Below are positions 26,425-64,000 of a DNA stretch of 64,000 nucleotides, piece after piece (the stretch's first letter is position 1; each line of letters begins with the position of its first letter). A program made the position numbers and the translations under genes. A model generated the notes under the pieces. That model was given only the letters and a program-made list of their open reading frames with translations, was not told the origin of the DNA and did no database searches. Source of the stretch: an archaeon (GTDB lineage: Archaea > SpSt-1190 > DYHY01). The stretch is from positions 26,017-90,016 of the forward strand of contig JAZDJS010000015.1 of assembly GCA_043803745.1 (NCBI GenBank). Reading direction: 5' to 3'.

Positions 26425-26516
26425 TTCAGGAAAGGCTCCCTAGTCAGCTATTTAGTTTTTCCCGGGGTTTTTAGGGAAAACACCTCTAGAAACGCTATTG
26501 TTAAATCCGACCTCTG

Positions 26517-26534
26517 TTGTACTATATTGGACAA
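26517..26534. promoter_or_regulatory. imperfect palindrome upstream of the Lrp gene; possible autoregulatory site
   Basis: TTGTACTATATTGGACAA, 14/18 self-complementary, immediately before ATG 26537. Confidence 0.4.
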
Positions 26535-26536
26535 AC

Positions 26537-26977
26537 ATGCACAGAGGCGCAAGCGAGAGAATACTTGATTTGCTTGAGCGCGATGCTTCCCTGACAAACC
26601 GCGAAATAGGGGAAAAACTTTCGCTTCCCACGACAACAGTCCACAACATAATAAGGCGTCTTGAGAAGGACGGTACAATAAGAAAATATTCGATTTTGAT
26701 AGACAAGGAGAAGCTCGGATATCCGATACAGGCAGTAATTTTAATTAACACAACCTTTGCCGGAAGCAAGTTGCCTGCACACGCAGAAATAGCCGCCAAA
26801 ATAAAGAAAATCGGAAAGGTTGATTGCATACATTCGATAACTGGCGAGTTTGACCTCCTTGTACGGGTCGCAGTCCGAAGCACAAGGGAACTTGGCGAAT
26901 TTGTTACAAAAGTGCGCAAAATTGACGGAGTAGTTAAAACGGTAACCTCAGTGGTTCTTGAGGAACTCAGCATTTGA
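26537..26977 (+). CDS. Lrp/AsnC family transcriptional regulator
   Basis: HTH (REIGEKLSLPTTTVHNIIRRLEKDG.I) and RAM domain (ITGEFDLL). Confidence 0.92.
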   Translation: MHRGASERILDLLERDASLTNREIGEKLSLPTTTVHNIIRRLEKDGTIRKYSILIDKEKLGYPIQAVILINTTFAGSKLPAHAEIAAKIKKIGKVDCIHSITGEFDLLVRVAVRSTRELGEFVTKVRKIDGVVKTVTSVVLEELSI

Positions 26978-27172
26978 CCTACGTGCAGTGAACTTATGTA
27001 ATTGTTGCGACGGAAAAAAGGTGTTCGGCGAAGCCCATTTGAGATTAAACAGATTCCTGCGCCTATTCAGCCTGTTGAAGACTGAATAAACAACCTTTCA
27101 CTTCAGTTGGGCTGAAAAAAGAACGCATTCTTCTTGAAATTGGCGAAAAAGACAACTCAATTCAAATTAGAT

Positions 27173-29923
27173 TCACTTGCTGTCGGCATTGTTCCAATAA
27201 ATCCTCGTTCTTGCGAAGGTTTTCTCCGCTTTTAGTATTTCAGAAATCAGCTCCGTGTAATCTCGCAAAGCTGATTTGGCAAGAACCCTTGCAGCGGTTT
27301 CCGGGCCAATTCCATATCCTGCAAGAACCAGGAACGTTTTTTGTCCATAGCTCAGGTAAAGATTTGCCGTTCTTTTCGATTTTTCAAGAATGCTCGCGTC
27401 CGCCTTGCTCAATGGGCCTTTCGCTGAAAGTATCGGGAGGTTTTCCCGTTTAAGAATCCCAAGTAGCTTTGAATTGCAAATAGGGCAGGCAAAATCAATG
27501 CTTTTTGCAGTAAAAATTCCCAAACCCTTCTTGCAATTAAGGCAGGCTAACTGGAATTTTTTCCTTTCCAGCCGTTTTTTGACCATTTCCCGAACTTTTC
27601 CCGCCGGAAGACCGGAGAAAACGAGTTCGGGACTATATCTTTCGATAAACCTCATTGAAAAAGGCGTCGGCGCCCCAAGTATCTCAATTTTCAAAACGCC
27701 GGATTTTATCCGTTTGACAAGTTCCCGGGTTTTTTCAATATCCAGTTTTTCGAAGAAATGTTCGTTAATTGTCTCTTCGAAAACCGGAGTCTCCGAATAA
27801 ACGTCAACAAGCCTCTGTATCGACATTTTGGAGAATACCGCATCTTTCGAAACAACCCCGAATTTCTTTGCAATCTGAATGAAACGCTGCTTGAATTGCG
27901 GACTGTTCCTGACAATTGTTCTCAGAGTCTGCCCGATTTTGTCCTCTTTAATTGAAAGAATGGTTTCCTTGATGCTTTCCTTGGAATAAGTTCCCGGAAA
28001 CTTTATGAAAATCCTATATGCATCTGTGCGAAGCCCAATCGAATCGCCATATTTTAGCGAAAAATATGCTGAAAGGAGCCTCCCAAGGGTTTCGTTGACC
28101 TTGTTTCCGAAAAAGCTCCGTATTACCACAAAGTTTTCGCCGCATTCAACCCCCAAAATAGTCTCTTGAAAGTTTCCGCACAGTTTCAGGTCATTTTCTA
28201 TCTTCTTGGCGCAATTGGCGTCGATTATCTTCAAATAGTCGGTTTTCTTCGAGGGCCAACCAGATCTAAGGCAATTAACCTCAATTGCAATGGAATAATC
28301 AACAGGCATAAGCTCTCCCGACCATTCGGGCACATTATATGCAACAGAAGTCTCCTCTACGAAAACTTTGTTGCCTTCTTTTGAAATGACCTTCCAATAC
28401 GCGCCCCGACAAATAAATGAAGCACCCAGTTCAAGTTCCGACGAGAATTCTTCATCGATTTGGGCTATTTTTTCCTTGCTCTCGAACTTTATGACGTCAA
28501 ACTTCCGGCTGTCCTTAATCATTGACAAATTGGAGAAGAAGAAGCTGAAAGCAGGCTTTTTAATCGAGATGACCCCGTTTTCGAGGATTCTCAGGATTCT
28601 GAGGTTGATAAGAAGATTGAGGATTTCAGTGAACTCCTCCCACGGAAGATTTTTGAAAGGAACCGCTCTTTTTATTGTAGCGAACGCGTTTTCAACGCTA
28701 TAGCAGCCTTCAAAGCCAATTCCGGTTAATTGATTGGCAACAACATCGAAGGAATTTTCAATAAACTCCATTGGCTCAAGGCGCTTTGAAAGGGCAAGCT
28801 TTGCAATAACCGCGGCTTCTAATGCATCATCCTCATCAATAACAACAATTTCTCCCCTTGAAATTTCCGAAAGCCGGTGCCCGGCCCGTCCAATTCGTTG
28901 AACAAGGGAATCAACACGTCGTGGAGACATATATTGGATTACCAAATCAATATGTCCGATGTCAATGCCAAGGGCGAGAGAAGATGTTGCGACAACAGCT
29001 ACAAGATCCTTGTTTTTCAGCTCTTTTTCAGTTTTTAGGCGAGATTCTTTTGACAAAGAGCTGTGATGGATACCGAATTTGCTGCTAATCGCTTTCAGCT
29101 TAGAACCGAGAATTTCTGCACTATCTCTGGTATTGACAAACACCAAAACGCCCGCATTTTCCTTTACGCGCCGCGCTATGAAGTTTATTTTTGAGTAGAA
29201 CCAATCTTTTTCCTCAGGTTCTTCAGTGTCTTGGACTTCCTCTTCAGGCCAAACAACCGATATTTCAGTCTTCTTTTGGTCTTTTGACTCTATTATCAGG
29301 ACTTCAGATTCATTACTTCCTTTTAGAATCTCTGCAACCGTCTTTGGATTAGAAATTGTTGCTGAAAGGCCGATTCTTACAAAATCTCGTCCGAGTTGAT
29401 TCTTTAGGCGTTCTAGACAAATTAACAGCTGTTCTCCTCGCTTTTCCCCTATTATTTCGTGTATTTCGTCAATTATGACGAAATCAACGTTTTTTAAATG
29501 TTCTTTGATTTTTTTCCCAATAATGATTGCTTGAAGGCTCTCAGGAGTTGTTATGAGCACGTTTGGCGGATCCTTTGTTTGCAAGGTTCTTTGGTTAGTT
29601 GGGGTGTCGCCATGGCGGATGTCAATGTCGATTCCAAGATCGTTACCAATTTCAATGATGCGTTCGAAAAGATTTCTATTCAATGCTTTCAATGGAGTTA
29701 TGTAAAGGCAAGAAATTCGTCTTTCCGGGTTTCTCGACAAAATATCAAGGATTGGGAGCATAACTGCTTCTGTTTTCCCGCTTCCAGTTTCGGAAACAAC
29801 TAAGACAGACCTTTTTTCAAGTATGTGCTTTATAGTATCTTTTTGCACATTTGTTGGTGTTATGAAGCCCCTTTTCGAAAGAATTTGTACTAGTTTTTTT
29901 GAAAGAAGTTCGAAAGACACCAC
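27173..29923 (-). CDS. lhr: Lhr-family ATP-dependent helicase
   Basis: TGSGKTEA, YITPLKALN, TTPESL, DEIH, LSAT and QRIGRAGH motifs; C-terminal zinc finger and HhH-like end. Confidence 0.92.
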   Translation of the reverse strand: MVSFELLSKKLVQILSKRGFITPTNVQKDTIKHILEKRSVLVVSETGSGKTEAVMLPILDILSRNPERRISCLYITPLKALNRNLFERIIEIGNDLGIDIDIRHGDTPTNQRTLQTKDPPNVLITTPESLQAIIIGKKIKEHLKNVDFVIIDEIHEIIGEKRGEQLLICLERLKNQLGRDFVRIGLSATISNPKTVAEILKGSNESEVLIIESKDQKKTEISVVWPEEEVQDTEEPEEKDWFYSKINFIARRVKENAGVLVFVNTRDSAEILGSKLKAISSKFGIHHSSLSKESRLKTEKELKNKDLVAVVATSSLALGIDIGHIDLVIQYMSPRRVDSLVQRIGRAGHRLSEISRGEIVVIDEDDALEAAVIAKLALSKRLEPMEFIENSFDVVANQLTGIGFEGCYSVENAFATIKRAVPFKNLPWEEFTEILNLLINLRILRILENGVISIKKPAFSFFFSNLSMIKDSRKFDVIKFESKEKIAQIDEEFSSELELGASFICRGAYWKVISKEGNKVFVEETSVAYNVPEWSGELMPVDYSIAIEVNCLRSGWPSKKTDYLKIIDANCAKKIENDLKLCGNFQETILGVECGENFVVIRSFFGNKVNETLGRLLSAYFSLKYGDSIGLRTDAYRIFIKFPGTYSKESIKETILSIKEDKIGQTLRTIVRNSPQFKQRFIQIAKKFGVVSKDAVFSKMSIQRLVDVYSETPVFEETINEHFFEKLDIEKTRELVKRIKSGVLKIEILGAPTPFSMRFIERYSPELVFSGLPAGKVREMVKKRLERKKFQLACLNCKKGLGIFTAKSIDFACPICNSKLLGILKRENLPILSAKGPLSKADASILEKSKRTANLYLSYGQKTFLVLAGYGIGPETAARVLAKSALRDYTELISEILKAEKTFARTRIYWNNADSK

Positions 29924-29965
29924 TATGCTTCCCTTAAACTAGTATAAAATCATATGTTTTTGCTG

Positions 29966-30388
29966 TTGATATCATTGACATCAATGATATCAATCTCATA
30001 TTAGTGACATTGGATTGAATCTCGGGTAACAAAAGACCCCTCACATACCACCCTCTCGAAAATTGTAGTGGTTACACATACCTAACATACCTATATGCCC
30101 ACAAGCTATCGCAACTTCAAACACATAAAAAGTCTCTAACATTTCATCTGTTTTTTTCGTATTTGTACTGCTTTCAAGGCCAAATGATGGGTTGACGGGC
30201 AGTTGATTGATTGTTTGCGGGCATTCCCTCAAGTTAGTATTGATATCATTAATGTCATTCATTTTATTGATGTCAATAACCTCATTGACTCAGAAAAAAG
30301 GCAAAGTATAAATACTTTTCCACATTTTTAATGTCAATGACCTCATTGATATCAAAAACTTTTTGATGTTGAAATAGGATTAACCTCA
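29966..30388. repeat. array of phased 9-bp repeats (consensus WTRAY(A/G/C)TCA) in AT-rich non-coding DNA
   Basis: TTGATATCA-TTGACATCA-ATGATATCA at 29966; TTGATATCA-TTAATGTCA at 30240; TTGATGTCA-ATAACCTCA at 30267; TTAATGTCA-ATGACCTCA-TTGATATCA at 30328; TTAACCTCA at 30380. Confidence 0.85.
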
Positions 30389-30403
30389 ACAACAACAATT
30401 AGC

Positions 30404-30751
30404 TTAAATTCTCTCAAAGGATAGCCCCCTACCGTTACGGAAATCGACATAAACGCGGTTCGCTCGTTTTTTTAAGCTTTCCTTGTCGAAAATGACCCTT
30501 TCGCAGCCGGGCTTCCCTTCGGAAGCCCGTTCAAACACAATCTCTCGAAAAGAAGCACATTCTGGAACTATGTGTTTGGAAGCAATATCTTTTTCAATGA
30601 AGAGCTGCGAATGAAGGAAAATAAGATCCTCCACAAAATTGCCACCGATGCAGAAACATGATTTTCTAAACCATTTGGGCGCTTTGGGAGCGAGTTCACG
30701 TTCTTTCATCCAATCAGTCAATTTCCGAGCTTCCAAACTAAAGAAAGACAA
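30404..30751 (-). CDS. hypothetical protein (possibly a remnant)
   Basis: 115-aa ORF with TTG start, no motif. Confidence 0.35.
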   Translation of the reverse strand: MSFFSLEARKLTDWMKERELAPKAPKWFRKSCFCIGGNFVEDLIFLHSQLFIEKDIASKHIVPECASFREIVFERASEGKPGCERVIFDKESLKKRANRVYVDFRNGRGLSFERI

Positions 30752-30896
30752 CGGGAGGACTCAAACCGACGGGTCCCTGATGTGTTACTTCAAGAAAAGT
30801 AAGCGTTTTTTCAGTTCCAACAGTTTCGTCCAATCAGATCGCGTTTCGACAGAATAACAGCCCTTTTTATAGTCGTCTTCAGACCTTGAAAGCAAA

Positions 30897-30972
30897 TGGT
30901 AGCCCCAGGCAGATTCGAACTGCCGTCCCAGGCTCCAGAGGCCCGTATCCTTGACCGCTAGACGATGGGGCT
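30897..30972 (-). tRNA. tRNA-Gln(CTG)
   Basis: AGCCCCA/TGGGGCT acceptor with the archaeal A1-U72 pair, CTCTGGA anticodon loop, TTCGAAT T-loop, encoded CCA. Confidence 0.95.
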
Positions 30973-31385
30973 TTCCCAGATTTCGCAAGGCGCCAACCTC
31001 TTTAATAAATCTTTGCCCCAGTCAAGACACATATTCGAAAACTTCGTTTAGTATTGGAGAGGGGTGGCCATAATATATGTTTGGAAAATGTCAAATGAAA
31101 CTAAGCATCCCTTGACAATTAACGTAACCATTGTATCGGAGCCGACAGGTTGCAAATAATTCAACAACAAACTGTTATAATTTACCCTAGTATGGTATAA
31201 AAAAATATGGTTTTCCAGTCCTAATAGGGCGAAATATCTACCTTCAAGCACCTGAAGGCGCTGTTTATTTGTTTTGTGGGCTAATATCTTGACCCTTGGG
31301 TTGGTTCGTGTCACTCAATAACGGCCTCCCTTAGATACCCCGAGGCCTGCCCCCGGTTGGAAGCTTCATTTTGGATGAGAACCCA

Positions 31386-31757
31386 TCATCCCCGCGCAAA
31401 TCTGCGCCATTTCTCAGCTTTTTCTTCAAGTTTATTTGCGAAATTATGACTTAGGAAATATCCGGAATATTTGCTTTCCCGGTCAATTAACCCCCCACGC
31501 TCAAGCGTTGAAACAATTCGATATATTGTCGCCCTTGGCCCCTGAACCTTGAGCTCCGAAGCAAACATTTGTCTGCCTGATCTTGAGTAGCATCCCGCAG
31601 CTTTCATTTCAAGTATTATCTGTATTGCAATCTCAACCTGGCTTTTTGCAACGAAATCCTCCAGAAGCAGTTTCAGGAAGTCTCGATTTCCTGAAAAGCC
31701 ATCCGTATCGGTTTTCTGAGACGAACGTTCAGTTTCCAAGAAAACACCCTCTTCCAC
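31386..31757 (-). CDS. winged-helix DNA-binding protein
   Basis: PRATIYRIVSTLERGGLIDR..Y.LS pattern. Confidence 0.7.
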   Translation of the reverse strand: MEEGVFLETERSSQKTDTDGFSGNRDFLKLLLEDFVAKSQVEIAIQIILEMKAAGCYSRSGRQMFASELKVQGPRATIYRIVSTLERGGLIDRESKYSGYFLSHNFANKLEEKAEKWRRFARG

Positions 31758-31972
31758 AAACAGACCATTTCCATATTTTTGAGACGAATATATATGTCTG
31801 CAGTTGAAGCCCCATCATTTGCCAAACCCTCCTGAAAAGAATGAAATCGCCTGTTTTTCGAGCATCGTCTCAGCTAACCGGGATTGGACTATTTATTCAT
31901 TGACCAGAGCATTCCTCTAATATTTCAAAAAAAGAAAAAGCCTAAAAGCAACAACTTGTCATAAAAAGCAAC

Positions 31973-32401
31973 ATGTCAACAACAGATTTGCCAATTTCTG
32001 AAATAACCATCAGGAAGTTCGAACGGCCCGAGAATATTGACAAAAAAGTGCTAATAAGGCGATTTTGCATTTCCCTTGGTTTGATAAATTCAGGAGATAA
32101 TCGTGCTGGCTGCGTTGACGTTTTTGAGGTAATTTTCAATTCAAAAGAACCTTTAAGTGCCGAAGAAGTGTTTGAATCGCTTGGGAAGAAACTTGCACTC
32201 TCAGGAATACGTCGGCATTTGCGGAGGCTTGAAAGAATAAGGATTTTGGAACACCGAAACTCCAAATATCAGATAGCGGAAGGTCGAAATCTCTCTTATT
32301 GCCTGAAATACGTTGTGAAGGACTACTTGATTGAAGACATTTTTAATCGGATATCAGAATACGGCGAAAAGCTTCAAAATTTGCTCGATTCGGAGAAATA
32401 A
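31973..32401 (+). CDS. winged-helix (ArsR-like) protein
   Basis: FCISLGLI, LSAEEV..., SGIRRHLRRLERIRILE. Confidence 0.75.
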   Translation: MSTTDLPISEITIRKFERPENIDKKVLIRRFCISLGLINSGDNRAGCVDVFEVIFNSKEPLSAEEVFESLGKKLALSGIRRHLRRLERIRILEHRNSKYQIAEGRNLSYCLKYVVKDYLIEDIFNRISEYGEKLQNLLDSEK

Positions 32402-32403
32402 GG

Positions 32404-32691
32404 TCACAGTTTGTCGAATGAGATATATATCCCTTCCATAGAATGTGCTATTTCTTCCCCGAATTTCGTCAAAATAACGTGTTTTATGCGCCCTTTTTTC
32501 TCGAATTCAACAAGCCCCAGTTTCTTCATATCCTGGAGAATCCGGACGCAATGGGAATACGTGCAATCAGCTTCCTTCGCAAGAATCGAGGCATATTTCT
32601 TCAGCCCCTTCAGTTTCGTTATGATTCTCGCCGGTTTGTCATGCAGAAACATTAGCTCGAGATCTTTTCTTGCCCCCATTGCCATTTTCAA
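32404..32691 (-). CDS. MarR-like winged-helix protein
   Basis: YASILAKEADCTYSHCVRIL...GLVEFEKKGRIK.V.LT..G. Confidence 0.82.
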   Translation of the reverse strand: MKMAMGARKDLELMFLHDKPARIITKLKGLKKYASILAKEADCTYSHCVRILQDMKKLGLVEFEKKGRIKHVILTKFGEEIAHSMEGIYISFDKL

Positions 32692-32793
32692 TAAACCCCC
32701 AAATTCTCCTATATTCTAAAAGATTGTGACAATCACTATATAACCGTTTTGATGCAACCATTGAGTTAGTATATTTTTACTGCAAGGATGATA

Positions 32794-33852
32794 TTAAAAA
32801 TACCACTTCAGCGCAATGTTCTTTATTATCTCCATCAAAAAGGTGAAGATTAGTCCCATAATCACAGAGGTAACAAGATTTGTCAACCCAAGAGTGGGCT
32901 CTAAAAAGTAGCTCGCAGCAGACTTAAGGACCCAAACGGAAACCCCGACAAGCACCCCTGTGTTGATGTAATGGAGCATAAGAGAGAAATTTGGGAAGGA
33001 ATCAATCGTTTTCCCGGAAACAACTGAAATGGCCGCCATCAGGAAGAAGAACAGCGAGCCGTAGAGGAACGAGAAAACCGTGTTGACAATGCTGGTGCTC
33101 CCCGCCATCTGCTCGAGTCCTTTGTAAATCGCGACGCCAACCATTACAAGGGAGACAACATACGTAAGCAAGGAAAACCTCATGAACTTGAAGGATGTCT
33201 TGAAATCGTTCACGAACCCGAGAACCGCGCTTTCAAGCTGGAAACCGCGTAGGAGCAGATAGCCGCCGACAACGGCAAAAATTATCCGCCAGCCGGACAT
33301 TCCGAAAAGGGCAAGCATTATTGCGACAATTCCCGGAACGCCAAGGACAAGCCGCGCCATTTCCTTGTCCTTCGTTATCTTCTTCAACCAATCCATTGCC
33401 GTGTAATAGGTGTTTTCAAGCCGCTCCGCCTGTTTCACTACAAGACGCCGTATCCCAGTTATCTTAATCCTCGACTGCAGGAGCGGAAGGACCTGGTCGT
33501 CCTCGGCGCCGTCAGTCACGAGGATTGCGCCGCTGTATTTTCCGCCTTTCAGAACGTGTTCAATTTGCTCGGAAACGATTCTGTCAGAAGCAACCCCGAC
33601 CTTGACCGAGCCAGTGACAACCGCAACCTCGCCCTTGACCTCCTTTGCGACCCGGACCGCCTCAAACATTGTGTTTGAATCGTTGTCAGCGGGGTCCGCC
33701 AGGGAAAGGGCAATAGCAGCTTCAAGAACCTTTCTTTCCCCGACAATTGGGCCGTCAAACTGGGTCTTCCTGCCGAGATCGTCGTCCCTATCGACGCACA
33801 TTACAATGAGCCGGTCGCTGATTTTTTCACTCTGTTGCCGCAAAATTAACAT
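32794..33852 (-). CDS. DUF373 family membrane protein
   Basis: CVDRDDDLG.K, DP.D.DSN, VTDGAEDD and VVKQA..LE.TYY motifs. Confidence 0.9.
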   Translation of the reverse strand: MLILRQQSEKISDRLIVMCVDRDDDLGRKTQFDGPIVGERKVLEAAIALSLADPADNDSNTMFEAVRVAKEVKGEVAVVTGSVKVGVASDRIVSEQIEHVLKGGKYSGAILVTDGAEDDQVLPLLQSRIKITGIRRLVVKQAERLENTYYTAMDWLKKITKDKEMARLVLGVPGIVAIMLALFGMSGWRIIFAVVGGYLLLRGFQLESAVLGFVNDFKTSFKFMRFSLLTYVVSLVMVGVAIYKGLEQMAGSTSIVNTVFSFLYGSLFFFLMAAISVVSGKTIDSFPNFSLMLHYINTGVLVGVSVWVLKSAASYFLEPTLGLTNLVTSVIMGLIFTFLMEIIKNIALKWYF

Positions 33853-51677: not shown

Positions 51678-54600
51678 CTAGAAGAACAGCAGCAGGAGTG
51701 CAGCAGCCCCTATGGCGACGATGAACCAAGTGCCTACCCCGAGCCCGTCCTTCACAATGATTTCCTCGCACTCGCTTGAGAGGAGGTTCCCCTTCCAATT
51801 CGTCAGGTTCGCGCAGGCGAGGTATTCTCCACTCTGCAAGTTCGCGGATATGGTCCCGTTCGTCGGGAGGTCGGATGTCGCCGACGAGGAAACGCTGACA
51901 GTTCCATTGGAATCCTGCAGGCTGTCGTTGACGAGCGCATTGGTTGTCCGTCCGAGGAGTATGTACGGGATTGAGACGGGTCCCTTGTAGAACACGACTC
52001 TCGGCCAGATTATCTGGAACGGGAGAACGTCCACAGAAACGTCCTTCTTAAGGACCCGTTTCCCGAGGTCGGTCACCTCAAGCGGGACAGTCCGATCTTC
52101 CGTTCCAATTACCGTGAAGGAAACTTCGGCGCTCGAACCGGGGGAAACTCTTGCCGTTCCGCTCTCATCCCCGAACTTCACAAGAGCCTGCCCTTCGGCA
52201 GTTCCCTCGTTCTTGACCGTAACCGAGAAAAGCGCCTCCTCAAACTTGTAAACTTCGATCATTTCAGGAGCGGAGGCAGTTATCTTCGGCGCGTTCTCAA
52301 CCGGAACTGTTGTGGTCTGGCCGGGCGAAGTTGTCGATGTTTCAACTCCCCCGCCGATTGTCACCTGCTCGCTGTCCGAGGCAAAAAGCCTGCCATCGTT
52401 GAGGTTCGCCCAAATGGTATGGGTTCCCGGGGAAAGCTCCTTTGGAACCTTGAAGAACCCGTTGTCCATCCTTTCGTAAACATACCTGCCGGAATCAATT
52501 GCATATGCAAGGCTTCCGTTGGCAGAAGTGCCGTCCTCATATGTCCCGACGAACGAAATCTCCCCCGAACCGTATCCGATCGAGAGTCCCATTGAATCGT
52601 GTATTCTTGTGCAGACCTGGACCGACATGTTCCTCGCGCTTACAAGGTCGCAGCTCTCGGAAGAGGGCGAAAGCAAGGAAACGTCATAGATCCCGTCCGA
52701 AGGGGCTGCAGTCTTCCTCGTTGCCCGGTATGTCACTATGAATGGCTCGCTCGCGGGAATCCCCCCGACGAACCATTTGCCTTCTGCGGAGAAAAGGGAG
52801 TTCGGCTTGACGATTGCGGGAGCTTCGAGAGTAAAGTCTTCGTTTCCGTTGCCGGAAGGATTGACGGTCAGGATCGCGCTCGCCCAGCCGACCTTGTCCT
52901 CCTTTTGGGCATGCGCGGTGATGTTGTTGTTTCCGTACCACGAGGTTGTCCAAATTTCCTTTGAGAATTCCCCGAACGTGTTCGTCGTGAGGATTTCCTT
53001 GCCCCAGGGCATCCTGAGCTCGACGGTCGCGGACCGCACGGGAAGCGTCCCATCGCTGACTTTTCCGGAGATTATGCTGGTTTCCCCGGCGAGAACTGTC
53101 ATCGGCACGGCCTGGACAGTCACTTTCAGGTTGTTCGGCTCAAGGATGAACCATTTGCTTGCATATGCAGTGACGGGACCCGTCGCGCTCGCCATCGCCT
53201 TGGCGGATATTTCATGGCTTCCCTCGGGCGAGTTGTAAATGGTCAGGTAATAGCTTCCAGTAAAGTCCGTGTAAGTTGTCCATTTGCCGAAAGTCGTCCT
53301 GACTTCGACGAAAGTGTCGGCAGACGTTTCGGACGGGCAGGCCTTGTTGTTGACGGTCCCCCGGACCCGTATCTCCTCGCCCGGCGCGTAGAAATATTTG
53401 TCAGTCTCAACAGTCATTCCATAGACCCCGCAACTTCCGCTTGTTTCGGAAGTTCCGGTCACTGAATATTTGCAAACCCCTTCTGAGCAGAAATAACTCC
53501 TCTGTTCGGCGGCGGGCCCGTTGCAATAGCCTCCGCTCCTAAGCGAGCAGTAGTAGCTTTCGCAAACTGGCGTGCCCTCGGTATGCCCGTTGTAGCAATC
53601 GACGCGCGCAACATCGAACCCGTAGTTTGCGGCAACCGGATCGCTGTTGAAGAGCAGTTTGGATTTCCAAGTCGGGTAGTATTCAGTCCAGCCATATTGC
53701 CCGCCGTTGAAGTTCTTTTCAACAACGCCAATGAGCCTGTTCCCGGCGGTCCCGTCATAGACAAGTAGCTTGTCCCCGCTTTCAGCAGAGAGCTTGAGAT
53801 AGAAGCGCATCTTGGTCGTCCCGTTCGGGCAGGAGAAATACCCCGAATCCGTCTGGATTTTCGTCCGGTAGGGATGTTCGGTTCCGTAGCAGGTCTCCGT
53901 GTCCCCCCCGTTGAAGAATTGGTCCGTACTGCAGGAGGGATCTTGCGCGTCAATCAATCCGTCATTGTCGTTGTCGGCCCCGTCGCAGCAGATTTCCCGC
54001 CTGCCCCATTGGGCCGGAGTGAGGCAGCCGTAGGTAGTGGAAGTGGTTGCCGTTCCGACATCATAGGTTTCCTTGGCAACGCAGAACCCCTTCGAGCACT
54101 TGAAGTCGGTCGGACAGACATGCCCGCAGAATCCGCAGTTGAAGCTATCGCTGTTGAAATTTCCCGAACACACAGATTCGCAGAAGTTTCCGACCTTCAC
54201 ATAATCTACCCTGAGCGAGCTCCAGTCGGCAGTTGTCGTGTAATAGGTGTAGTTTCCGAACCATATTGTCTTGGGAGCCGCTGTCGAGGTCCCCGCCGAA
54301 TACATTACGCCATCGAAATAAATCTTATACTGGCCGGAAATGGACTCCATCCTGATGACATGCCAGTTGAGGTCGTACGAACCGGAGTAAACGGGCTCTC
54401 CGAAAGCGGTTACGTTAAGGAGCCCCGTCACAGTGTCGGACTTTACGGAAAGGAAGTCTTCCCTGTCGAAAGCCCCGACGTTGTCAGGCATGCGCGTTGC
54501 TGCGCTAAATGGCGAGAAAGTCCCGATGAAAATCCCAGAAGAGCGCTCCCGCACCTGCGGATACTGGAAGCGTATTTCAACGTAGTATTTGGAGCCGATT

Positions 54601-55391
54601 CCCGAGAAGGCATTGCTCCTTCCCACGAGAGGGAAATCATTGTCAAGCCCGTTCGAGGAAAGGAAAAGGTAGCTGCTGCTCTCGGAGAACTCTGCGCGTC
54701 CCCCGGACTGGTCGAAGGACCATCCGTTCGGCACGCCAACCGAAAAAGTGTCCTCGAAAACGTTTCCCGGAGTGCACGCCTCTGTCGGAGTGTCCGTCAT
54801 GCAGAACCCGCTCGAGCAATAGTACCCGGTCGGACAGGCATGTCCGCAGGCCCCGCAATTCTCCCTGCTGTTTTTCAGGTCAATCCCATAACAGTCGATT
54901 GAAGTGCCCGGAATATCCGAAACGCACATTCCGCTCGAGCAATAGTACCCGGTCGGACAGGCATGTCCGCAGGCCCCGCAATTGCTTTCATCAGTTTCAA
55001 TATCGGCTCCGTTGCAATAAGGCGCAGTTGTGCTTGTCGTGGTTTGACAAGAGATGCAAGAAGGAATTGTCGTCGCGGTTGTAGTGGTTGTCGGCCAAAC
55101 ATAGTTCCCGCAAATGCAGGTTCCGCCAGTCTTGAGAAGTTCCTTGCATGCAGTGTAGCAGTATCCGCTCTGCGAAAGGGGTTTGCACGGACCCAGCGGA
55201 TTGCACCACTGGATTTCCCCGGGCCCGCAAGTGACCCCGTTAAACGAACATCCTCCGCCGCAGCCGTTGTTAGCTCCGGGGCTGCTGCAATGGCAGTTCC
55301 ACGAAAAGCCGGTTGACAGAATAATGGAGAGAAACAGCGCAGACAAAAAAAACGCAGCCAGAACAAATCCAAACAGTTTTCCCTTTACCAT
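51678..55391 (-). CDS. large Cys-rich modular cell-surface protein (1237 aa)
   Basis: signal peptide; three NCG.CGH.CP...CS.G.C repeats; lectin-like beta-sandwich; CDGADNDNDGLID motif; Ig-like domains; C-terminal TM. Confidence 0.85.
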   Translation of the reverse strand: MVKGKLFGFVLAAFFLSALFLSIILSTGFSWNCHCSSPGANNGCGGGCSFNGVTCGPGEIQWCNPLGPCKPLSQSGYCYTACKELLKTGGTCICGNYVWPTTTTTATTIPSCISCQTTTSTTAPYCNGADIETDESNCGACGHACPTGYYCSSGMCVSDIPGTSIDCYGIDLKNSRENCGACGHACPTGYYCSSGFCMTDTPTEACTPGNVFEDTFSVGVPNGWSFDQSGGRAEFSESSSYLFLSSNGLDNDFPLVGRSNAFSGIGSKYYVEIRFQYPQVRERSSGIFIGTFSPFSAATRMPDNVGAFDREDFLSVKSDTVTGLLNVTAFGEPVYSGSYDLNWHVIRMESISGQYKIYFDGVMYSAGTSTAAPKTIWFGNYTYYTTTADWSSLRVDYVKVGNFCESVCSGNFNSDSFNCGFCGHVCPTDFKCSKGFCVAKETYDVGTATTSTTYGCLTPAQWGRREICCDGADNDNDGLIDAQDPSCSTDQFFNGGDTETCYGTEHPYRTKIQTDSGYFSCPNGTTKMRFYLKLSAESGDKLLVYDGTAGNRLIGVVEKNFNGGQYGWTEYYPTWKSKLLFNSDPVAANYGFDVARVDCYNGHTEGTPVCESYYCSLRSGGYCNGPAAEQRSYFCSEGVCKYSVTGTSETSGSCGVYGMTVETDKYFYAPGEEIRVRGTVNNKACPSETSADTFVEVRTTFGKWTTYTDFTGSYYLTIYNSPEGSHEISAKAMASATGPVTAYASKWFILEPNNLKVTVQAVPMTVLAGETSIISGKVSDGTLPVRSATVELRMPWGKEILTTNTFGEFSKEIWTTSWYGNNNITAHAQKEDKVGWASAILTVNPSGNGNEDFTLEAPAIVKPNSLFSAEGKWFVGGIPASEPFIVTYRATRKTAAPSDGIYDVSLLSPSSESCDLVSARNMSVQVCTRIHDSMGLSIGYGSGEISFVGTYEDGTSANGSLAYAIDSGRYVYERMDNGFFKVPKELSPGTHTIWANLNDGRLFASDSEQVTIGGGVETSTTSPGQTTTVPVENAPKITASAPEMIEVYKFEEALFSVTVKNEGTAEGQALVKFGDESGTARVSPGSSAEVSFTVIGTEDRTVPLEVTDLGKRVLKKDVSVDVLPFQIIWPRVVFYKGPVSIPYILLGRTTNALVNDSLQDSNGTVSVSSSATSDLPTNGTISANLQSGEYLACANLTNWKGNLLSSECEEIIVKDGLGVGTWFIVAIGAAALLLLFF
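54808..54983. repeat. identical 53-bp direct repeat inside the surface-protein gene
   Basis: 54808-54860 equals 54931-54983, 123 bp (41 codons) apart; encodes NCGACGHACPTGYYCSSG. Confidence 0.95.
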
Positions 55392-58291: not shown

Positions 58292-58357
58292 TTCCCGCTT
58301 TTTGTCTCCCCATGCCACATGCCAGCCAGGCAAACTCCTTTCTTAAATCCTTTCGTT

Positions 58358-58430
58358 CAGGAACCCTTTTGCTGATGCAAAAGCGTTTGGTCCTCAGACC
58401 ATCGGTGCTGCAGCACGGACACGGAAAAAA
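58358..58430 (-). repeat. interspersed structured repeat homologous to 13344-13424
   Basis: reverse complement reads CCGTGTCCGTGCTGCAGCACCGATGGTCTGAGGACCAAACG...AAAAGGGTTCCTG. Confidence 0.85.
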
Positions 58431-58450
58431 ATGTAAAATGGAAACCTGCG

Positions 58451-58640
58451 CGCTCAAGAACCCCTTGAAAATATCAGGTGGGTTGAGACATCGGCCAAAG
58501 TCCACTAAATGCGATTGAACGCAGAAAACGTGTTTAGTGGGACTGACGAAGGGATTTCCTCAAGCTACAGCTTGTGAGACCTCGCTAAAACGCTCGGGAA
58601 CCCTTGACAAATCTAGGTGGGTTGAGGCGTCCGCAAGGAC
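58451..58640. repeat. two imperfect ~45-bp direct repeats 140 bp apart, downstream of tRNA-Ile
   Basis: CGCTCRRGAACCC(C)TTGA..AAT...AGGTGGGTTGAG at 58451 and 58591. Confidence 0.8.
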
Positions 58641-58683: not shown

Positions 58684-58761
58684 TGGTGGGCACGAAGGGA
58701 TTTGAACCCTTGACCTCTGCCTTATCAGAGCAGCGCTACTACCGACCTGAGCTACGCGCCC
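58684..58761 (-). tRNA. tRNA-Ile(GAT)
   Basis: GGGCGCG/CGTGCCC acceptor stem, CTGATAA anticodon loop, TTCAAAT T-loop, encoded CCA. Confidence 0.95.
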
Positions 58762-58819: not shown

Positions 58820-59080
58820 CTACTTCCGTCTCCTCTTTTTTTGGGCAGCAATTGTCTTGGGTTTTTCAGCCGGGCCGGTGTTAATCCCGAGGACTGCGTA
58901 AAGCGGGCAGAAGCCGATTATTGCGGTTGTTGCGAGTATTGCCGAGATAACATATGCAATTGTTTGGAGCCCCTCTTCCAGGAAGAAGAATCCTGCAATA
59001 AGGAAAACTCCGGATGCCAGCGCCCGGACCATCCTGTCAGTCTCTCCCTCGTTCCTTTTCAGACAAGTGCATGAGCACAT
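58820..59080 (-). CDS. DUF2892 (YgaP-like) membrane protein
   Basis: N.G.TDR..R and TA..GFCPLY..LGINT motifs. Confidence 0.88.
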   Translation of the reverse strand: MCSCTCLKRNEGETDRMVRALASGVFLIAGFFFLEEGLQTIAYVISAILATTAIIGFCPLYAVLGINTGPAEKPKTIAAQKKRRRK

Positions 59081-59188: not shown

Positions 59189-59821
59189 TTAGAACTGTAC
59201 GGTTGGGTCGCCTGTTTGAATAAAGCAATCTAGGTCGTTTTTGAGCCAGACTAACTGATCGAATGAACCCGGTTCGAAGCTACCTTCTGCTTTAATTATG
59301 GCGCTTTCGAAGGCTTTAATGGCTGATTGATAGACATCTCCTACAGTATTTCCTTTTAGCAAAGAGACCGCTATCCTATTTGTTATGTTCATAAATGGCA
59401 TAGCTTGTGGATCTTCTGTAGGTGTAAACCCTAGGCCAGGGTCCATAGGAAACCCAAAAACTGAAGTGAATCCTAGAAATGCTTTGGTTTTTGTTGGGTT
59501 TTCTTCAAAAGCTTGCCCAACAAAGCATACTCTGGCGAAGATAATTGTGCTCTTCAAATCATCAGACGTTTTAACATTAATTAGCTCTTCTTCAGCTTTC
59601 CCTAAGATACTGGTGGGGGTGCCGTGACAATTGAAAACTATTAGTCCCGGACTTCGCGCAAGGCTTGCTTTGAATCTTTCTTTTGCAGATTCTTTGAAGC
59701 CTAAATCGTCAATATCGATTCCATTGCCCTTAGCGAATTCAAGTATCTCTGAACTCCATTGAGACAGATAGTTTAGTTCGTCTTTGTCATCTGGGCGGAC
59801 AACTAAGACGCGTTTACTCAA
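59189..59821 (-). CDS. caspase/gingipain-fold (peptidase C25/CHAT-like) cysteine protease, stand-alone catalytic domain
   Basis: LIVFNCHG (His66), IIFARVC (Cys99), AFLGF, L.KG.TVGD and terminal GDP; TTG start with GGTGA RBS. Confidence 0.7.
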   Translation of the reverse strand: MSKRVLVVRPDDKDELNYLSQWSSEILEFAKGNGIDIDDLGFKESAKERFKASLARSPGLIVFNCHGTPTSILGKAEEELINVKTSDDLKSTIIFARVCFVGQAFEENPTKTKAFLGFTSVFGFPMDPGLGFTPTEDPQAMPFMNITNRIAVSLLKGNTVGDVYQSAIKAFESAIIKAEGSFEPGSFDQLVWLKNDLDCFIQTGDPTVQF

Positions 59822-59824
59822 AAA

Positions 59825-60043
59825 TTATTCACCTTTTTTGAATGATCGTATTCCCTTCATATAGACGGCGGTTACTAGTTTGCCTATCTCGTCTTGTAAC
59901 TGTACGTGTTCAATTAATTCTTCCTTAGAGAAAGTACCGCTACTGCCCATAAATGTCTTCATAGTTGAGGGCATTATTTGAAGTCTAGCTAGGACGAGGT
60001 TTATTTCATCTTTACTTAATTGGGTTTCGGGGTTTGTTTCCAT
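59825..60043 (-). CDS. small hypothetical protein (72 aa), operon partner of the protease
   Basis: ATG with GAGG upstream; stop 3 nt before the protease start. Confidence 0.75.
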   Translation of the reverse strand: METNPETQLSKDEINLVLARLQIMPSTMKTFMGSSGTFSKEELIEHVQLQDEIGKLVTAVYMKGIRSFKKGE

Positions 60044-60061
60044 GTTGTCATTCCTCTGTGA

Positions 60062-60256
60062 TTATATTATACCCATCGTTACTAGCTTTTCTGCTATTTT
60101 TATACCTATCTCAGTACCTCCTAATATCTCTTTGTATGCCCTATCCCAGCTTATTGGACCATAGGGCTCTAGAACGACAACTGGGTTCAGTCGTTCTGAT
60201 GGAGGTAGACTATCGAAAACCTTCAAGAATCTGACCTTGTTTGGATTCTCGACCAT
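60062..60256 (-). CDS. small hypothetical protein (64 aa), first gene of the protease operon
   Basis: ATG ~23 nt downstream of a TTTTAAATA box; similar pattern to 59825-60043. Confidence 0.75.
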   Translation of the reverse strand: MVENPNKVRFLKVFDSLPPSERLNPVVVLEPYGPISWDRAYKEILGGTEIGIKIAEKLVTMGII

Positions 60257-60320
60257 CTCTCTGTTTTGATTATTTCAAGTATTTAAAAGCGTTACTTTTA
60301 AGGGCCATTTATCAAAGATT

Positions 60321-61337
60321 TTAGGAGTGCTGTTTGTTTTCAAAGAAATCCGGCGTAATCCCTATCTCGTGCATCTCTTGGATTATGACGCATAGATTGT
60401 GACAGAGGACCTTGCAGAGTATCTCGTTCTTCTGCCCGATCTCCGTCTTGTTCCTCAGCCGGTTCCCGAACTTGGCTTTTATCATCGAGAAGCAAGTCTC
60501 GATATTGCTTCTCTTGTGGTAGTGCTGAAGGAACTCGTCCCGGTTGAGCTGGAAATAGTAATACATACGTTTCCAGATAGGCGAACCAAGGGCGCGCCCT
60601 TTGCTATTTGATTTGAAAGGAATGAACGGTGTCGCTCCAAGAGACTCTACAGTCTCAAGGTTTCGCCGACTCAGATATGCCTTGTCGGCGGAGACCTCAA
60701 GCACTCGAAAACCCTGTGCGGTTTCCTCTACAAGCTCTTGGAACTCAACAACATCGGCAGAGTGCCCGCCGGTTACCTTGACCGCTGTGATTATATTGGT
60801 AGTCGTTCCGCAACAGGCGTGAGCCTTCATCCACTTCTGCTTGTAGGTTTCCTTTCCCCATTTATGGTCGAACCACCGTGCGAACTGGCTGCTGCCGAAG
60901 CCAGTGGAATCAATGGCGAAGGATGTCTCGACTGTCGCGAGGGGAAGGGAAGACTTGCGGATTAGTTCTTCTAGAAGGTCGGTGAGTTCCCAGCTGTTGA
61001 AGCCATTGATTACGCTGTTGTAGCAGGGCCTCTTTGTCAAGTATCCTTTCTCGCAAGCGAAGCGTATATCTGAATCTGTCCTCCGACTTGACGCTCCAGA
61101 GAAGACCTTGAGGGCGCAGCAGAAGGCTAGTTCTCCAAGATTCAGCTTCGGTCTTCCGAAGTTTTGCTCTTGCTCGAAGGTTGTGATGTCCTTCAGGAGA
61201 CGAAGGAATAGTTCCTTCTCGATGGTCTGTGCCCGGTTGTAGGCGGGCCAGTTTTGGGAGTAGTTTTGGCGCTGCGGATTCGAAAGTGTTTTATCCTCCT
61301 CGTGCGTTATTTCCCCCGCAGGGGTGTGTTCTTCCAT
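60321..61337 (-). mobile_element. DDE transposase (IS5/IS4-like)
   Basis: NWPAYN, AIDSTGF, ADKAY and YHKRSNIETCFSMIKAKFG motifs; no terminal inverted repeats recognised. Confidence 0.85.
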
Positions 61338-61391: not shown

Positions 61392-61477
61392 TGGCGCGGA
61401 GGTCGGGACTCGAACCCGAATGTCCTGGAGGACGCTCGCTCTTAAGGCGAGTGCGTTTGCCGTTCCGCCACCTCCGC
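61392..61477 (-). tRNA. tRNA-Leu(TAA), long variable arm, G73 discriminator
   Basis: GCGGAGG/CCTCCGC acceptor stem, CTTAAGA anticodon loop, GTCC-TCCA-GGAC variable arm, TTCGAGT T-loop, ends G-CCA. Confidence 0.9.
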
Positions 61478-61603: not shown

Positions 61604-62302
61604 ATGGGAAAACTCGGACAATACGACTATCCTGATCTGAGCTTTACGCTCGCATTGCAGTCCGTAAAAGAGCTTGATTCAAAACTCAAAGGAGACGAGA
61701 TGACTCTCGAAGGTATGTCCTCGGCTCTTGGGCACGGAACGCACAAGAGCGGCGGCTTTCTTATGAAGATTGCCGATTTGAGGCGTTTTGGGCTTCTTTC
61801 TGGGCGAGGCAAGATGACTCTTTCGGATCTGGCCAAGCGCATCTTATATCCTACAAACCCAGAAGAAGAACGCGCAGCGCTCACTGAAGCGTTTATGAGC
61901 GTGCAGCTATTCAAGGAGATATACAACCGGTTTGGAGCAACCGAGCCGTCAGAGAGCGACATAAACACCTTTCTCCTTAATTTCACTAAACAGGACCGAG
62001 GAATCATCGCTAAAAAAGCAGTTAACATTAGGAAGTCTTATATTGAGGGTATGAGCAGGATTGGTAATATGGCAAATACACCAGGTCAAGTTATTCCTGC
62101 AAGCAGGTCCTTCTCTCCCTCAGCGATTCCTGGACGCACAGTCTCTGGGAATCCCAATGTGTTTGAAAAGAGTTTCGGGGATATCTTTATCAGCATCCCA
62201 AAAACGAAAGCTGCTCTCGAAGAGCTCAATGCTCTCTATCCGATAATAAAGAAACAGATAGAGCGAGAAGTTTCCGAGGCTACAGAAAAGAAAGAGAATT
62301 AA
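61604..62302 (+). CDS. winged-helix domain protein (DUF5343-like)
   Basis: YP..S...AL, ALGH....SGGF..KIA.LR.FGLL and LSDLA..IL.P pattern. Confidence 0.6.
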   Translation: MGKLGQYDYPDLSFTLALQSVKELDSKLKGDEMTLEGMSSALGHGTHKSGGFLMKIADLRRFGLLSGRGKMTLSDLAKRILYPTNPEEERAALTEAFMSVQLFKEIYNRFGATEPSESDINTFLLNFTKQDRGIIAKKAVNIRKSYIEGMSRIGNMANTPGQVIPASRSFSPSAIPGRTVSGNPNVFEKSFGDIFISIPKTKAALEELNALYPIIKKQIEREVSEATEKKEN

Positions 62303-62303
62303 G

Positions 62304-64000
62304 TCACTTCATAGACGCTTCAACAATATTCCGTTCCCCTTCGGTTAAACCGTAGATATCATAGACGAGGCGGTCTATCTCGGCATCTGCGCGCTTGATC
62401 TCGTCCTCCAGCCTCTGGCGCTCGGAGGTCTGCTTGTCGCCGAAGGATTGGAGTTGTTTGTTTAGGGAGAGCAGTTTATCTACGAGGGCGACTACTTTAT
62501 CTTGAGTATTGTCAGATTTTATTGGCAGTTCTAAAAAGGCGTTTTTTGCTACGCTCAGTACCTTATACTTTTGAAGGTAGTAATAGTTCAAAACTTTTGA
62601 ATTGATTAGCGCAACAAGATATTTCAAAATATGTGAGTCTTTGTTCTTGAGCAGAAGTGCGTCCTTTATGTAATATCCTTGATCGTCAAAAGTACACACC
62701 AGCTTCTTGGCTATATCCATTATTACTATCTTGGGTTCTTCGAATCGTTGTGGCTCCCCGGGGCGAGCGGTATTTTTGTTTTTTCTCATTAACTCAGGTT
62801 TGTAAAAAACGTATTCATCTTTGAACTTAACGTAGTACCTTCCGAAATCGCTTCTTCTCAATAGTTTTTTGTATTCGGTACCATTCTTTGGGGCAAAAGT
62901 CAAAAACTTATCATCATCGGCAGTTTTTAGTCCATAAAAGAAATCCACACGGTCTTTCAGCTTTGTTGATGAGGTATCTATTTTCTTAACAAGTTTCTCA
63001 GAAGGTCCAGTACTCAAATCGAATATGCCTTCTTTATCCAATACAGCTTGTTTCTTTATTCCTAGTTTACTGATTTTTGAGTTCTCATCTATACTGAGGA
63101 GTTCTACAGAGTTTCTTTTCCTTGCTTCCTCGGAGCTACACCGCTCGAAAACAAATATTAAGGTTTCAACCGTCGCATCTTGGAATACTTTTTTTGGAGC
63201 AATGGTTATAGAAGTTATCTTACATTTTTGATTGATATAGGAGCGCAAATCTTCAAAACTTTCTAATGAGAGCCAGGTATGAGGAACTATAAGCGAGATT
63301 TCTCCTTTTTCTTTCAATAAATCTATTCCCCTCTCAATAAATGCAGCATACAAGTCTCCTTTGGCTTTGACTACCTTGCTGTGCTTCCACAAGTATCTTT
63401 TCGTTCTTTCATCAATCTTATGAGGACGAACATATGGCGGATTCCCAATTATCACGTCAAACCCGCCCTCATTCATTATCCCAGCGAACCTCTCCTCCCA
63501 CTTGAAAGCCGTCCCGGGGGCGACCTTCTCATCATCGATGAGGGAGTTGCCGTGCTGGATATTGTCCTTGAGGAGAGGCAGCCTGTGCCTAGTCTCGGCC
63601 GTCTTCAGGAGGAGGTTCAATTGCGCTATCTCCACCGCCTTGGCATCCAAGTCGACTCCGAAAATGCTGTTCTGGAGTATCTGGGCTTTCTTCTTGATGT
63701 TTATGTCCTCATCGGAGCTGCCCAGTTTAGCCTGTGCCACTCTGCCCTGCTTCTTAGCGTAATACTCATCGAAAACCTCGAACGCCTTCAGAAGGAATGA
63801 GCCGCTCCCGCAAGCCATATCTAGGACCTTGATCTTGTCCGCGTCCTCCGGCTTCTTCAGCCCTTTCAAGACCTCCCCTAACGTGTTCCTGACGATGTAA
63901 TCGACGATGTAGCCAGGGGTGTAGTAGATTCCCTGCTCCTTCCTATGAGACTGTATTCTCCCTATGTATTTCTCATACATCGAGCCGAGGATGTCAGCCG
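62304..64000 (-). CDS. type IIG/Eco57I/TaqI-like N6-adenine DNA methyltransferase with TRD (5' truncated by window)
   Basis: GIYYTP, LDMACGSGSFL, FDVIIGNPPY, YL.ALINS and IDRLVYDIYGLT motifs; frame is open to the window end. Confidence 0.93.
   Translation of the reverse strand, partial: ADILGSMYEKYIGRIQSHRKEQGIYYTPGYIVDYIVRNTLGEVLKGLKKPEDADKIKVLDMACGSGSFLLKAFEVFDEYYAKKQGRVAQAKLGSSDEDINIKKKAQILQNSIFGVDLDAKAVEIAQLNLLLKTAETRHRLPLLKDNIQHGNSLIDDEKVAPGTAFKWEERFAGIMNEGGFDVIIGNPPYVRPHKIDERTKRYLWKHSKVVKAKGDLYAAFIERGIDLLKEKGEISLIVPHTWLSLESFEDLRSYINQKCKITSITIAPKKVFQDATVETLIFVFERCSSEEARKRNSVELLSIDENSKISKLGIKKQAVLDKEGIFDLSTGPSEKLVKKIDTSSTKLKDRVDFFYGLKTADDDKFLTFAPKNGTEYKKLLRRSDFGRYYVKFKDEYVFYKPELMRKNKNTARPGEPQRFEEPKIVIMDIAKKLVCTFDDQGYYIKDALLLKNKDSHILKYLVALINSKVLNYYYLQKYKVLSVAKNAFLELPIKSDNTQDKVVALVDKLLSLNKQLQSFGDKQTSERQRLEDEIKRADAEIDRLVYDIYGLTEGERNIVEASMK

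Follow-up and report, generated by a model that had tools for sequence, protein, structure and literature searches.

A predicted clan CD cysteine protease encoded with two small partner proteins in a cassette that recurs among DPANN archaea and candidate phyla radiation bacteria

What might a caspase-like protease do in a small archaeal genome when it is encoded directly behind two tiny proteins and brings no sensor of its own? This question is raised by a three-gene locus on contig JAZDJS010000015.1 of the archaeal assembly GCA_043803745.1 (1.23 Mb in 51 contigs, 90% complete), from which the stretch of 64,000 nucleotides at positions 26,017-90,016, referred to here as the window, was analyzed. 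On the basis of the list of open reading frames (ORFs) and their translations, three closely packed ORFs occupy the minus strand at 59189-60256 and encode proteins of 64, 72 and 210 aa, termed here A (60062..60256, ATG start), B (59825..60043, ATG start) and C (59189..59821, TTG start). The intergenic gaps are 18 nt between A and B and 3 nt between B and C. A TATA-like box, TTTAAATA, was read by eye at 60280..60287 on the same strand, 24-31 nt 5' of the ATG of gene A, and is presumed to be the single archaeal promoter of the A-B-C cassette. An earlier note, made from the sequence alone, had described an operon of this composition with its own TATA box and had proposed it as a new minimal defense or toxin-antitoxin (TA) module switched by a protease; the operon and the box are both found where that note placed them. 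Searches of Pfam, NCBIfam, PHROGs and PADLOC gave no match to any of the three proteins at E<=0.1, with rows of chance level appearing only above that threshold, and the PADLOC-DB 2.0 models returned 0 families for each protein at E<=1. A full-text literature search found no description of the trio, the supplementary family tables of surveys of DPANN archaea and candidate phyla radiation (CPR) bacteria lying outside the reach of that search. Within PADLOC and the literature so covered, the trio matches no system already described, as the note had suspected.

We considered the fold and catalytic residues of the largest protein, C. Its translation contains the motifs from which a caspase-hemoglobinase fold had been proposed, namely FNCHG with His66, FARVC with Cys99 and AFLGF at 114-118, and the GDP previously called terminal is present at 204-206, near the end of the 210-aa chain. 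A word-index homologue search with the single protein recovered C alone, and sequence searches of the PDB with either the single protein or a C profile gave no meaningful match. An exhaustive HMMER search identified 384 representative relatives at E<=1e-3, 152 of them at E<=1e-10. Nearly all of these relatives are 205-219 aa long, and the C family is therefore a stand-alone one. Within an alignment of 130 relatives, His66, Gly67 and Cys99 are invariant (130/130) and Asp137 is kept in all except one (129/130). An AlphaFold2 model built from this alignment reached a mean predicted local distance difference test score (pLDDT) of 96.6 and a predicted template modeling score of 0.92. In the model, the predicted strands 60-63 and 93-96 end just ahead of His66-Gly67 and Cys99, respectively, so placing the histidine-glycine pair and the cysteine after consecutive strands and 33 residues apart. 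The same 33-residue spacing separates His211 and Cys244 of the gingipain RgpB, which we take to be its corresponding residues.

A Foldseek search of the PDB with this model ranked SAVED-CHAT first (E 7.7e-6, probability 1.00), followed by Csx29, a C11 peptidase, caspases and gingipains. Re-alignment with VIA gave the highest Z scores for RgpB (15.6 for 4ief_D, with a root-mean-square deviation of 2.9 over 174 residues) and SAVED-CHAT (15.5), and further scores of 13.3 for legumain, 13.2 for RgpB entry 1cvr, 12.9 for Kgp, 12.8 for metacaspase 9, 12.1 for MALT1, 10-11.5 for caspases, 10.3-11.4 for separase and 11.3 for GPI8, the alignments to clan CD structures spanning about 160-187 residues. 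Because the AlphaFold2 model, the Foldseek and VIA matches and the invariance in 130 of 130 relatives agree, we regard the prediction of C as a clan CD cysteine protease of caspase-hemoglobinase fold as confirmed at the level of the model, and likewise its putative catalytic dyad of His66-Gly67 and Cys99 as confirmed by the alignment. Both the fold and the dyad had been proposed in the earlier note, and by structure C lies closest to C25 and CHAT proteins.

Assignment to a curated family is a separate matter. C gave no match to PF01364 (Peptidase_C25) even at E<=1, and weak matches to this profile appeared in 8 of the 130 relatives (best E 7.2e-7). Likewise, PF12770 (CHAT) was not matched by C and was matched weakly by three of the 130 relatives (best E 0.0098). 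The structural likeness of C to CHAT is high without a profile match, and C is therefore to be read as a fold relative of CHAT and not as a member by profile. No family was matched by C for C14 either, nor does C14 occur among the 25 listed of the 60 families matched by the 130 relatives; the structural Z scores to C14-type caspases and metacaspase (10-12.8) lie below those to C25 or CHAT. Judged by profile, C thus belongs to no curated family. The catalytic fold fills all 210 residues (model range 1-210), which differs from the secreted multidomain architecture of C25 enzymes; the N-terminus, MSKRVLVVRPDD, is not hydrophobic, and no sensor, TPR or signal region is found within the 210 aa, in line with the earlier description of a bare protease. 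C is presumably cytoplasmic. Judged by alignment, the copy in this genome is a divergent family member, at most 34% identical to any other and differing from the family consensus at 7 of the 29 positions conserved at 80% or more (T8V, D13K, G65C, Y95F, L105F, G106E and Y118F).

The two proteins encoded ahead of C belong to families of soluble proteins of 60-90 aa. In 40 archaeal and CPR copies of A, residues R22, W37 and L58 are invariant and F10, P18, A40, E43 and I54 are conserved in at least 90%. In 43 copies of B, R20 is kept in 42, G33 in 40 and G54 in all 43, and a hairpin motif K-x-S-I-G-x-x-G (residues 29-36) is conserved, with lysine or arginine at position 29 in 27 copies. The AlphaFold2 model of B (pLDDT 82.9) shows an alpha-beta-beta-alpha-alpha arrangement to which no fold was assigned, as Foldseek found no solved structure at E<=1e-3 and the best VIA-wide Z score was 4.6. 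A pattern shared by the two small proteins had been pointed out previously, and the comparison of their profiles gives it moderate support: hhalign aligned A with B at a probability of 65.8% (E 5.7e-5, 38 columns) over exactly the stretches named, matching LP, ISW against FSK, and EIG. The A profile also matches one B protein weakly (E 0.0014), and A and B are probably distant paralogs. Family and profile searches with A and B returned no membrane segment, nuclease or other effector match, and no fused form of B was found among longer proteins, a search that we rate as weak evidence.

In order to describe how the three products may fit together, we turn to the co-fold of A, B and C, which was run from custom alignments with C as the scored partner in three runs and three controls. 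The runs scored 0.85, 0.84 and 0.85 and the best of the three controls 0.00, where 58 of 80 solved complexes and 2 of 110 mismatched pairs attain the calibration mark, a rough guide here. For the partners, pLDDT stayed at 89 or higher, and no fewer than 95% of the contacts recurred between runs. The predicted interface comprises residues 20, 23-25, 27-37, 56, 60-61, 63-65 and 67 of B, residues 18-21 and 24 of A, and residues 14-15, 18, 66-68, 73, 99-100, 121-130, 139-140 and 179-198 of C, including the highly conserved Y18, H66, G67, C99, F122, A140 and L193. The most confident pairs set B 28-32 antiparallel to C 123-127, and B 33-37 is placed at His66 and Cys99 of C. By these contacts, the conserved hairpin of B is predicted to sit in the catalytic cleft of C and to touch both catalytic residues, and an A-B-C complex with B in the active site of C is thus supported by the model. 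Together with the conserved layout, the co-fold provides an in silico instance of a small upstream product binding the downstream product of the same operon, as expected of a TA system. One finer assignment, Lys29 of B as the P1 residue facing an Asp137 pocket of C, was considered and dropped: 16 of the 43 B copies have neither lysine nor arginine there, and the strand register of the co-fold leaves position 29 too far upstream, several residues away from the catalytic site.

The co-occurrence of the three genes was followed in 401 archaeal genomes searched with the protease profile and in 401 CPR genomes related to a Candidatus Roizmanbacteria metagenome-assembled genome (MAG), here G401 (handles beginning with G denote genomes, with the contig after a colon, and those beginning with L denote loci). 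Profiles of A and B built from five loci were used to scan every archaeal locus that the protease profile had recovered. C was found in 18 archaeal genomes, all of 0.8-1.6 Mb, and in 21 CPR genomes; it occurs in 2 of 17 genomes of the source organism's own phylum and was not found in a genome of the same genus that is 94% complete. Several genomes carry more than one copy (three in G252 and in G401, two in G030 and in G309). The named holders of the family are Patescibacteria, Parcubacteria, Daviesbacteria, Microgenomates and Roizmanbacteria on the CPR side and Woesearchaeota, Nanoarchaeota, Diapherotrites, Micrarchaeota and archaeon GW2011_AR17 on the archaeal side. The Roizmanbacteria MAG G401 (1.1 Mb) holds three whole cassettes (L051, L053-L055), two of which are 89% identical.

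A was found at 19 and B at 20 of the 22 archaeal loci, and frame-by-frame reading recovered the whole trio at 17 of them, with one more locus holding B and C beside an A cut by the contig start. At the CPR loci, B is present at 23 of 23 and A at 21 of 23, both missing copies of A falling at contig ends. The genes are tightly coupled, A and B overlapping by 4 nt at 10 of 19 archaeal loci and B and C overlapping or being separated by no more than 13 nt. The co-occurrence of the trio elsewhere, on which the earlier note had made its proposal depend, is therefore seen in archaea and in CPR bacteria alike. Where loci are partly decayed, C is the damaged gene in five of five cases and A and B are whole: G116, where C is without its first ~22 residues, and G310, where it stops after ~90, among the archaea, and G792, G649 and G702 among the CPR bacteria. 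The archaeal locus G309:C20 is a lone fragment of C, and a whole C without B occurs at no locus examined. At a further locus, L049 (G138:C16, about 124200-125300), A, B and C are each frameshifted into two pieces, either as a decayed cassette or through a locally error-rich assembly. In a quick tree of 38 whole C proteins, from which the damaged L022, L025/L029, L026, L030 and L073-L077 and also L051/L052 (from the same genome as L053-L055) were omitted, the archaeal and CPR labels change twice against a mean of 13 after shuffling; the backbone is unresolved, and the tree may be compatible with one origin of C in each domain.

On the basis of these results, we favor a mobile protease switch of the toxin-antitoxin or abortive-infection kind, in which C is capped by the small proteins and B acts as a pseudosubstrate, and we give this reading a probability of about one half. 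A, B and C would form one autonomous, horizontally mobile cassette of ultra-small DPANN-type archaea and CPR bacteria, with C as an active clan CD protease lacking any sensor or regulatory domain of its own. B and its paralog A would bind C and cap the catalytic cleft, the beta-hairpin of B running along the substrate-binding loop of C (123-127) onto His66 and Cys99 in the manner of a pseudosubstrate. As long as A and B are being made, C would be silent; should they disappear, be displaced or be broken down, as might happen when the element is lost or the cell is infected, C would be freed and would cleave proteins of the cell or of the invader, following a toxin-antitoxin or abortive-infection logic with the protease as the toxin. 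This reading is favored because of the patchy, multi-copy spread of the cassette, its foreign composition, the TA and mobile genes beside it at some loci and the pattern of decay, the last of which is only suggestive. That B inhibits C and is not cleaved by it, and that the cassette is toxic or serves in defense or addiction, is what we infer from this combination. A more far-reaching version, in which a heterodimer of two tiny paralogs with an unmatched fold caps a minimal caspase-like protease and so represents an undescribed TA or abortive-infection class moving between CPR bacteria, DPANN archaea and possibly their viruses, is put forward more tentatively, at somewhat less than even odds. 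If true, no smaller regulated switch of the caspase type would be known, and the cassette would be common to ultra-small episymbionts of both domains.

The foreign composition was seen in the source genome. The cassette lies in a low-GC island that runs from just past a tRNA-Ile(gat) (58684-58761) to the contig end (58762..64000), and the GC content is 0.405 for the trio, 0.453 for the island and 0.539 for the genome. TTA accounts for 14% of the leucine codons in genes of the island and for 0% in the six core genes sampled. Between the tRNA-Ile and the trio, in the low-GC stretch, lies a gene for a YgaP-like membrane protein of 86 aa (58820-59080, minus strand; PF11127, E 8e-18). Beyond the trio follow an IS5-type DDE transposase (60321-61337), which is a single copy in the assembly, and a tRNA-Leu(taa), with UAA anticodon, at 61392-61477. 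A tRNA-Leu(UAA) occurs twice in the genome, the other copy lying at G000:C42:16462-16550 and differing strongly; the only other duplicated anticodon is that of two tRNA-Met(cat). It looks as though a tRNA-Leu(UAA) had come along with the acquired DNA. The island ends with an ORF of 232 aa on the plus strand (61604-62302), which has no Pfam, NCBIfam or PADLOC match and a single PHROG row of chance level (E 0.12), and an Eco57I/N6 methylase gene of type IIG-like kind (62304-63998), which is ended by the contig end; judged by its tail-to-tail position, the 232-aa ORF could encode a partner of the methylase. A repeat search of the island found no convincing att-like direct repeat of a tRNA end. 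Low GC, TTA usage, the second tRNA-Leu and the IS5 element together indicate that the cassette here is part of horizontally acquired DNA, and the transposase, the restriction-modification gene and the extra tRNA are the neighbors that had been listed from the sequence at the outset.

Several further features of the window are recorded. Imperfect direct repeats lie just ahead of the tRNA-Ile at 58354-58634, with two copies of a 34-nt unit, 139 nt apart and 76% identical, and three of a 15-nt unit. A second low-GC stretch lies at 26000-33800, where the GC content is 0.43 and that of both flanks about 0.53. It contains an Lhr-type DEAD helicase (27173-29923), a tRNA-Gln(ctg) (30897-30972) and several short unassigned ORFs, and may be another acquired region. 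The minus strand at 51678-55391 encodes a protein of 1237 aa that has a hydrophobic segment at its N-terminus and contains Cys-rich repeat units (NCGACGHACPTGYYCSSG-like); it is probably a large protein of the cell surface. The window also encodes a Hef-type ERCC4 helicase, Lhr and DUF373, which mark the genome as archaeal.

The surroundings of the cassette in other genomes are less uniform. Within 5 kb of C at 21 archaeal loci, nothing recurs except the trio, and an IS5-like transposase is found near it at three of the 21. A Pfam scan of 148 neighboring ORFs from 20 archaeal loci, of which the 25 most frequent of 172 matched families were considered, yielded four MNT-type nucleotidyltransferases, four AAA_14 proteins, two AbiEii, two DDE transposases and two Bro-N proteins. 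PADLOC matches among these 148 ORFs were few. The two Roizmanbacteria trios that are 89% identical adjoin a HEPN+MNT-like pair and a HicAB-like pair, and an AAA ATPase is also found beside the trios of this genome, all as read by eye from the translations. The earlier picture of a defense-type island therefore holds for this genome only; elsewhere, with no conserved neighbor, the trio stands among a mixture of housekeeping, TA and mobile genes. At many loci, a contig end is no more than about 1 kb away (for example G021:C5, G252:C29, G005:C4, G365:C31, G793:C6, G587:C48, G737:C24, G502:C31 and G758:C22), and such contig breaks beside the trio hint at adjacent repeats or strain-variable DNA.

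Several observations weigh against a toxin-antitoxin or abortive-infection switch. The predicted position of the B hairpin at the dyad would be expected of a substrate no less than of an inhibitor; both roles had been named for the small proteins in the earlier note, and the pose supports the two without separating them. The damage to C in five of five decayed loci has, by our own arithmetic, a chance of about 0.09 if damage is proportional to gene length, and the same pattern would also arise if C activates harmless pro-proteins. In addition, the co-fold calibration holds only roughly for custom alignments, PADLOC gives no match for the trio, no DNA-binding or antitoxin fold is recognizable in A or B by profile searches, or in B by structure searches, and most neighbors among the 148 ORFs elsewhere are housekeeping genes such as those for tRNA synthetases, PfkB, HAD hydrolases and SecDF. 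The seven deviations from consensus in the C protein of this genome, together with its place on the longest branch of the quick tree, indicate that this particular copy may be drifting. In an alternative reading, B, and perhaps A, is the substrate, so that C would cut the B hairpin and the product or the freed A-B fragments would act, following the logic of gasdermins and Csx30. The predicted pose, with the strand of B paired antiparallel to the substrate-binding loop and the following residues at the dyad, is what such cleavage would look like, the hairpin motif is conserved (G33 in 40 and K/R29 in 27 of 43 copies), an acidic pocket could be provided by Asp137 of C, which 129 of the 130 relatives retain, and the loci with a damaged C beside whole A and B fit harmless pro-proteins equally well. 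However, A and B are small and soluble and show no membrane segment, nuclease or other effector match, C carries no sensor domain to trigger the cleavage, and position 29 of B is non-basic in 16 of the 43 copies, so that a strict P1 residue is not evident. We consider this alternative unlikely, with a probability of about one in five.

Two other explanations move the cassette away from conflict within the cell, or away from the cell altogether. C could be a regulated cytoplasmic processing protease with the small partners as adaptors or cofactors, in an accessory role perhaps tied to the episymbiosis of CPR bacteria and DPANN archaea. The small genomes of the holders (0.8-1.6 Mb), the fact that all named holders are CPR or DPANN, the many housekeeping neighbors and an invariant dyad that argues for sustained selection on catalysis all agree with such a role; however, only about 5% of the sampled genomes carry the cassette and a genome of the same genus has no match, multi-copy genomes and pseudogenized copies exist, the composition in this genome is foreign, and no partner pathway is conserved alongside. 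We rate this role as rather improbable, somewhat below the substrate alternative. It is still less probable, in our judgment, that the cassette serves elements integrated in CPR and DPANN hosts, or viruses of these hosts, in counter-defense or in processing their own proteins, and that the cellular copies are proviral remnants. Such an origin would suit an island that carries its own tRNA-Leu(UAA), a methylase, a transposase and a low GC content, as well as the many loci near contig ends, the two Bro-N genes among the neighbors and the label Uroviricota, which is the commonest phylum label among the few labeled members of the nearest Atlas clusters. These taxon labels rest on few members, however, and relatives were found neither in IMG/VR scans with four different C members nor by tblastn against 50,697 GenBank phage records, searches with only close relatives within their reach; capsid, terminase and integrase families are also absent among the 25 most frequent of the 172 neighbor families.

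The cassette can be compared with several known systems. The gingipains RgpB and Kgp (C25, PF01364) include the best structural match of C, RgpB, and the family to which 8 of the 130 relatives match weakly, and the RgpB entry 4ief is, by its title, the mature domain in complex with its pro-domain. Unlike gingipains, C has no signal peptide, pro-domain, Ig-like or secretion domain, and its partners are separate small genes. SAVED-CHAT (8tl0) and the TPR-CHAT protein Csx29 of type III-E CRISPR with its substrate Csx30 (7zoq, 8eey) resemble the cassette in being clan CD proteases that act on or with a small partner encoded next door. However, C lacks SAVED, TPR or any other sensor, no CBASS or CRISPR genes lie nearby, and neither A nor B is detectably related to Csx30; no Craspase- or CBASS-type sensor, CRISPR or cyclase families occur among the 25 most frequent of the 172 neighbor Pfam families.

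The likeness to separase and securin (5mz6) is one of logic only. Separase belongs to clan CD like C (Z 10.3-11.4), and securin is a small, separately encoded partner that occupies the active site of separase as a pseudosubstrate and holds it inactive, which is the pose predicted for B on C by the co-fold. Separase is, however, eukaryotic and very large, and securin is disordered and unrelated to B. Type II TA systems share with the cassette small upstream genes tightly coupled to a larger downstream gene, a patchy and multi-copy distribution, a place in foreign or variable regions beside other TA pairs, and the loss of the large gene first at decayed loci. They differ in that the cassette has three genes with two small paralogs, a clan CD protease as the presumed toxin and no recognizable antitoxin DNA-binding fold. 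Bacterial gasdermin-protease operons similarly place a caspase-like protease, equipped there with sensor or repeat domains, beside its presumed target; unlike them, the cassette has no gasdermin, A and B matching no Pfam or PADLOC family. New here are the protease family, the partner families and their spread across CPR bacteria and DPANN archaea; control of a clan CD protease by a small partner in trans, as proposed for the cassette, is of a known kind.

Caspase-type proteases are the switches of several prokaryotic immune systems, in which they are joined to a large sensor in one protein. The putative switch described here amounts in all to about 350 residues over three genes. It is shared by CPR bacteria and DPANN archaea, organisms that are hard to culture and whose accessory biology is largely unknown. 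As A, B and C are small, soluble and predicted with high confidence, the questions of inhibitor or substrate, toxicity and specificity are directly testable in a heterologous host, and, if borne out, the cassette would serve as a minimal model of how clan CD proteases are regulated in trans.

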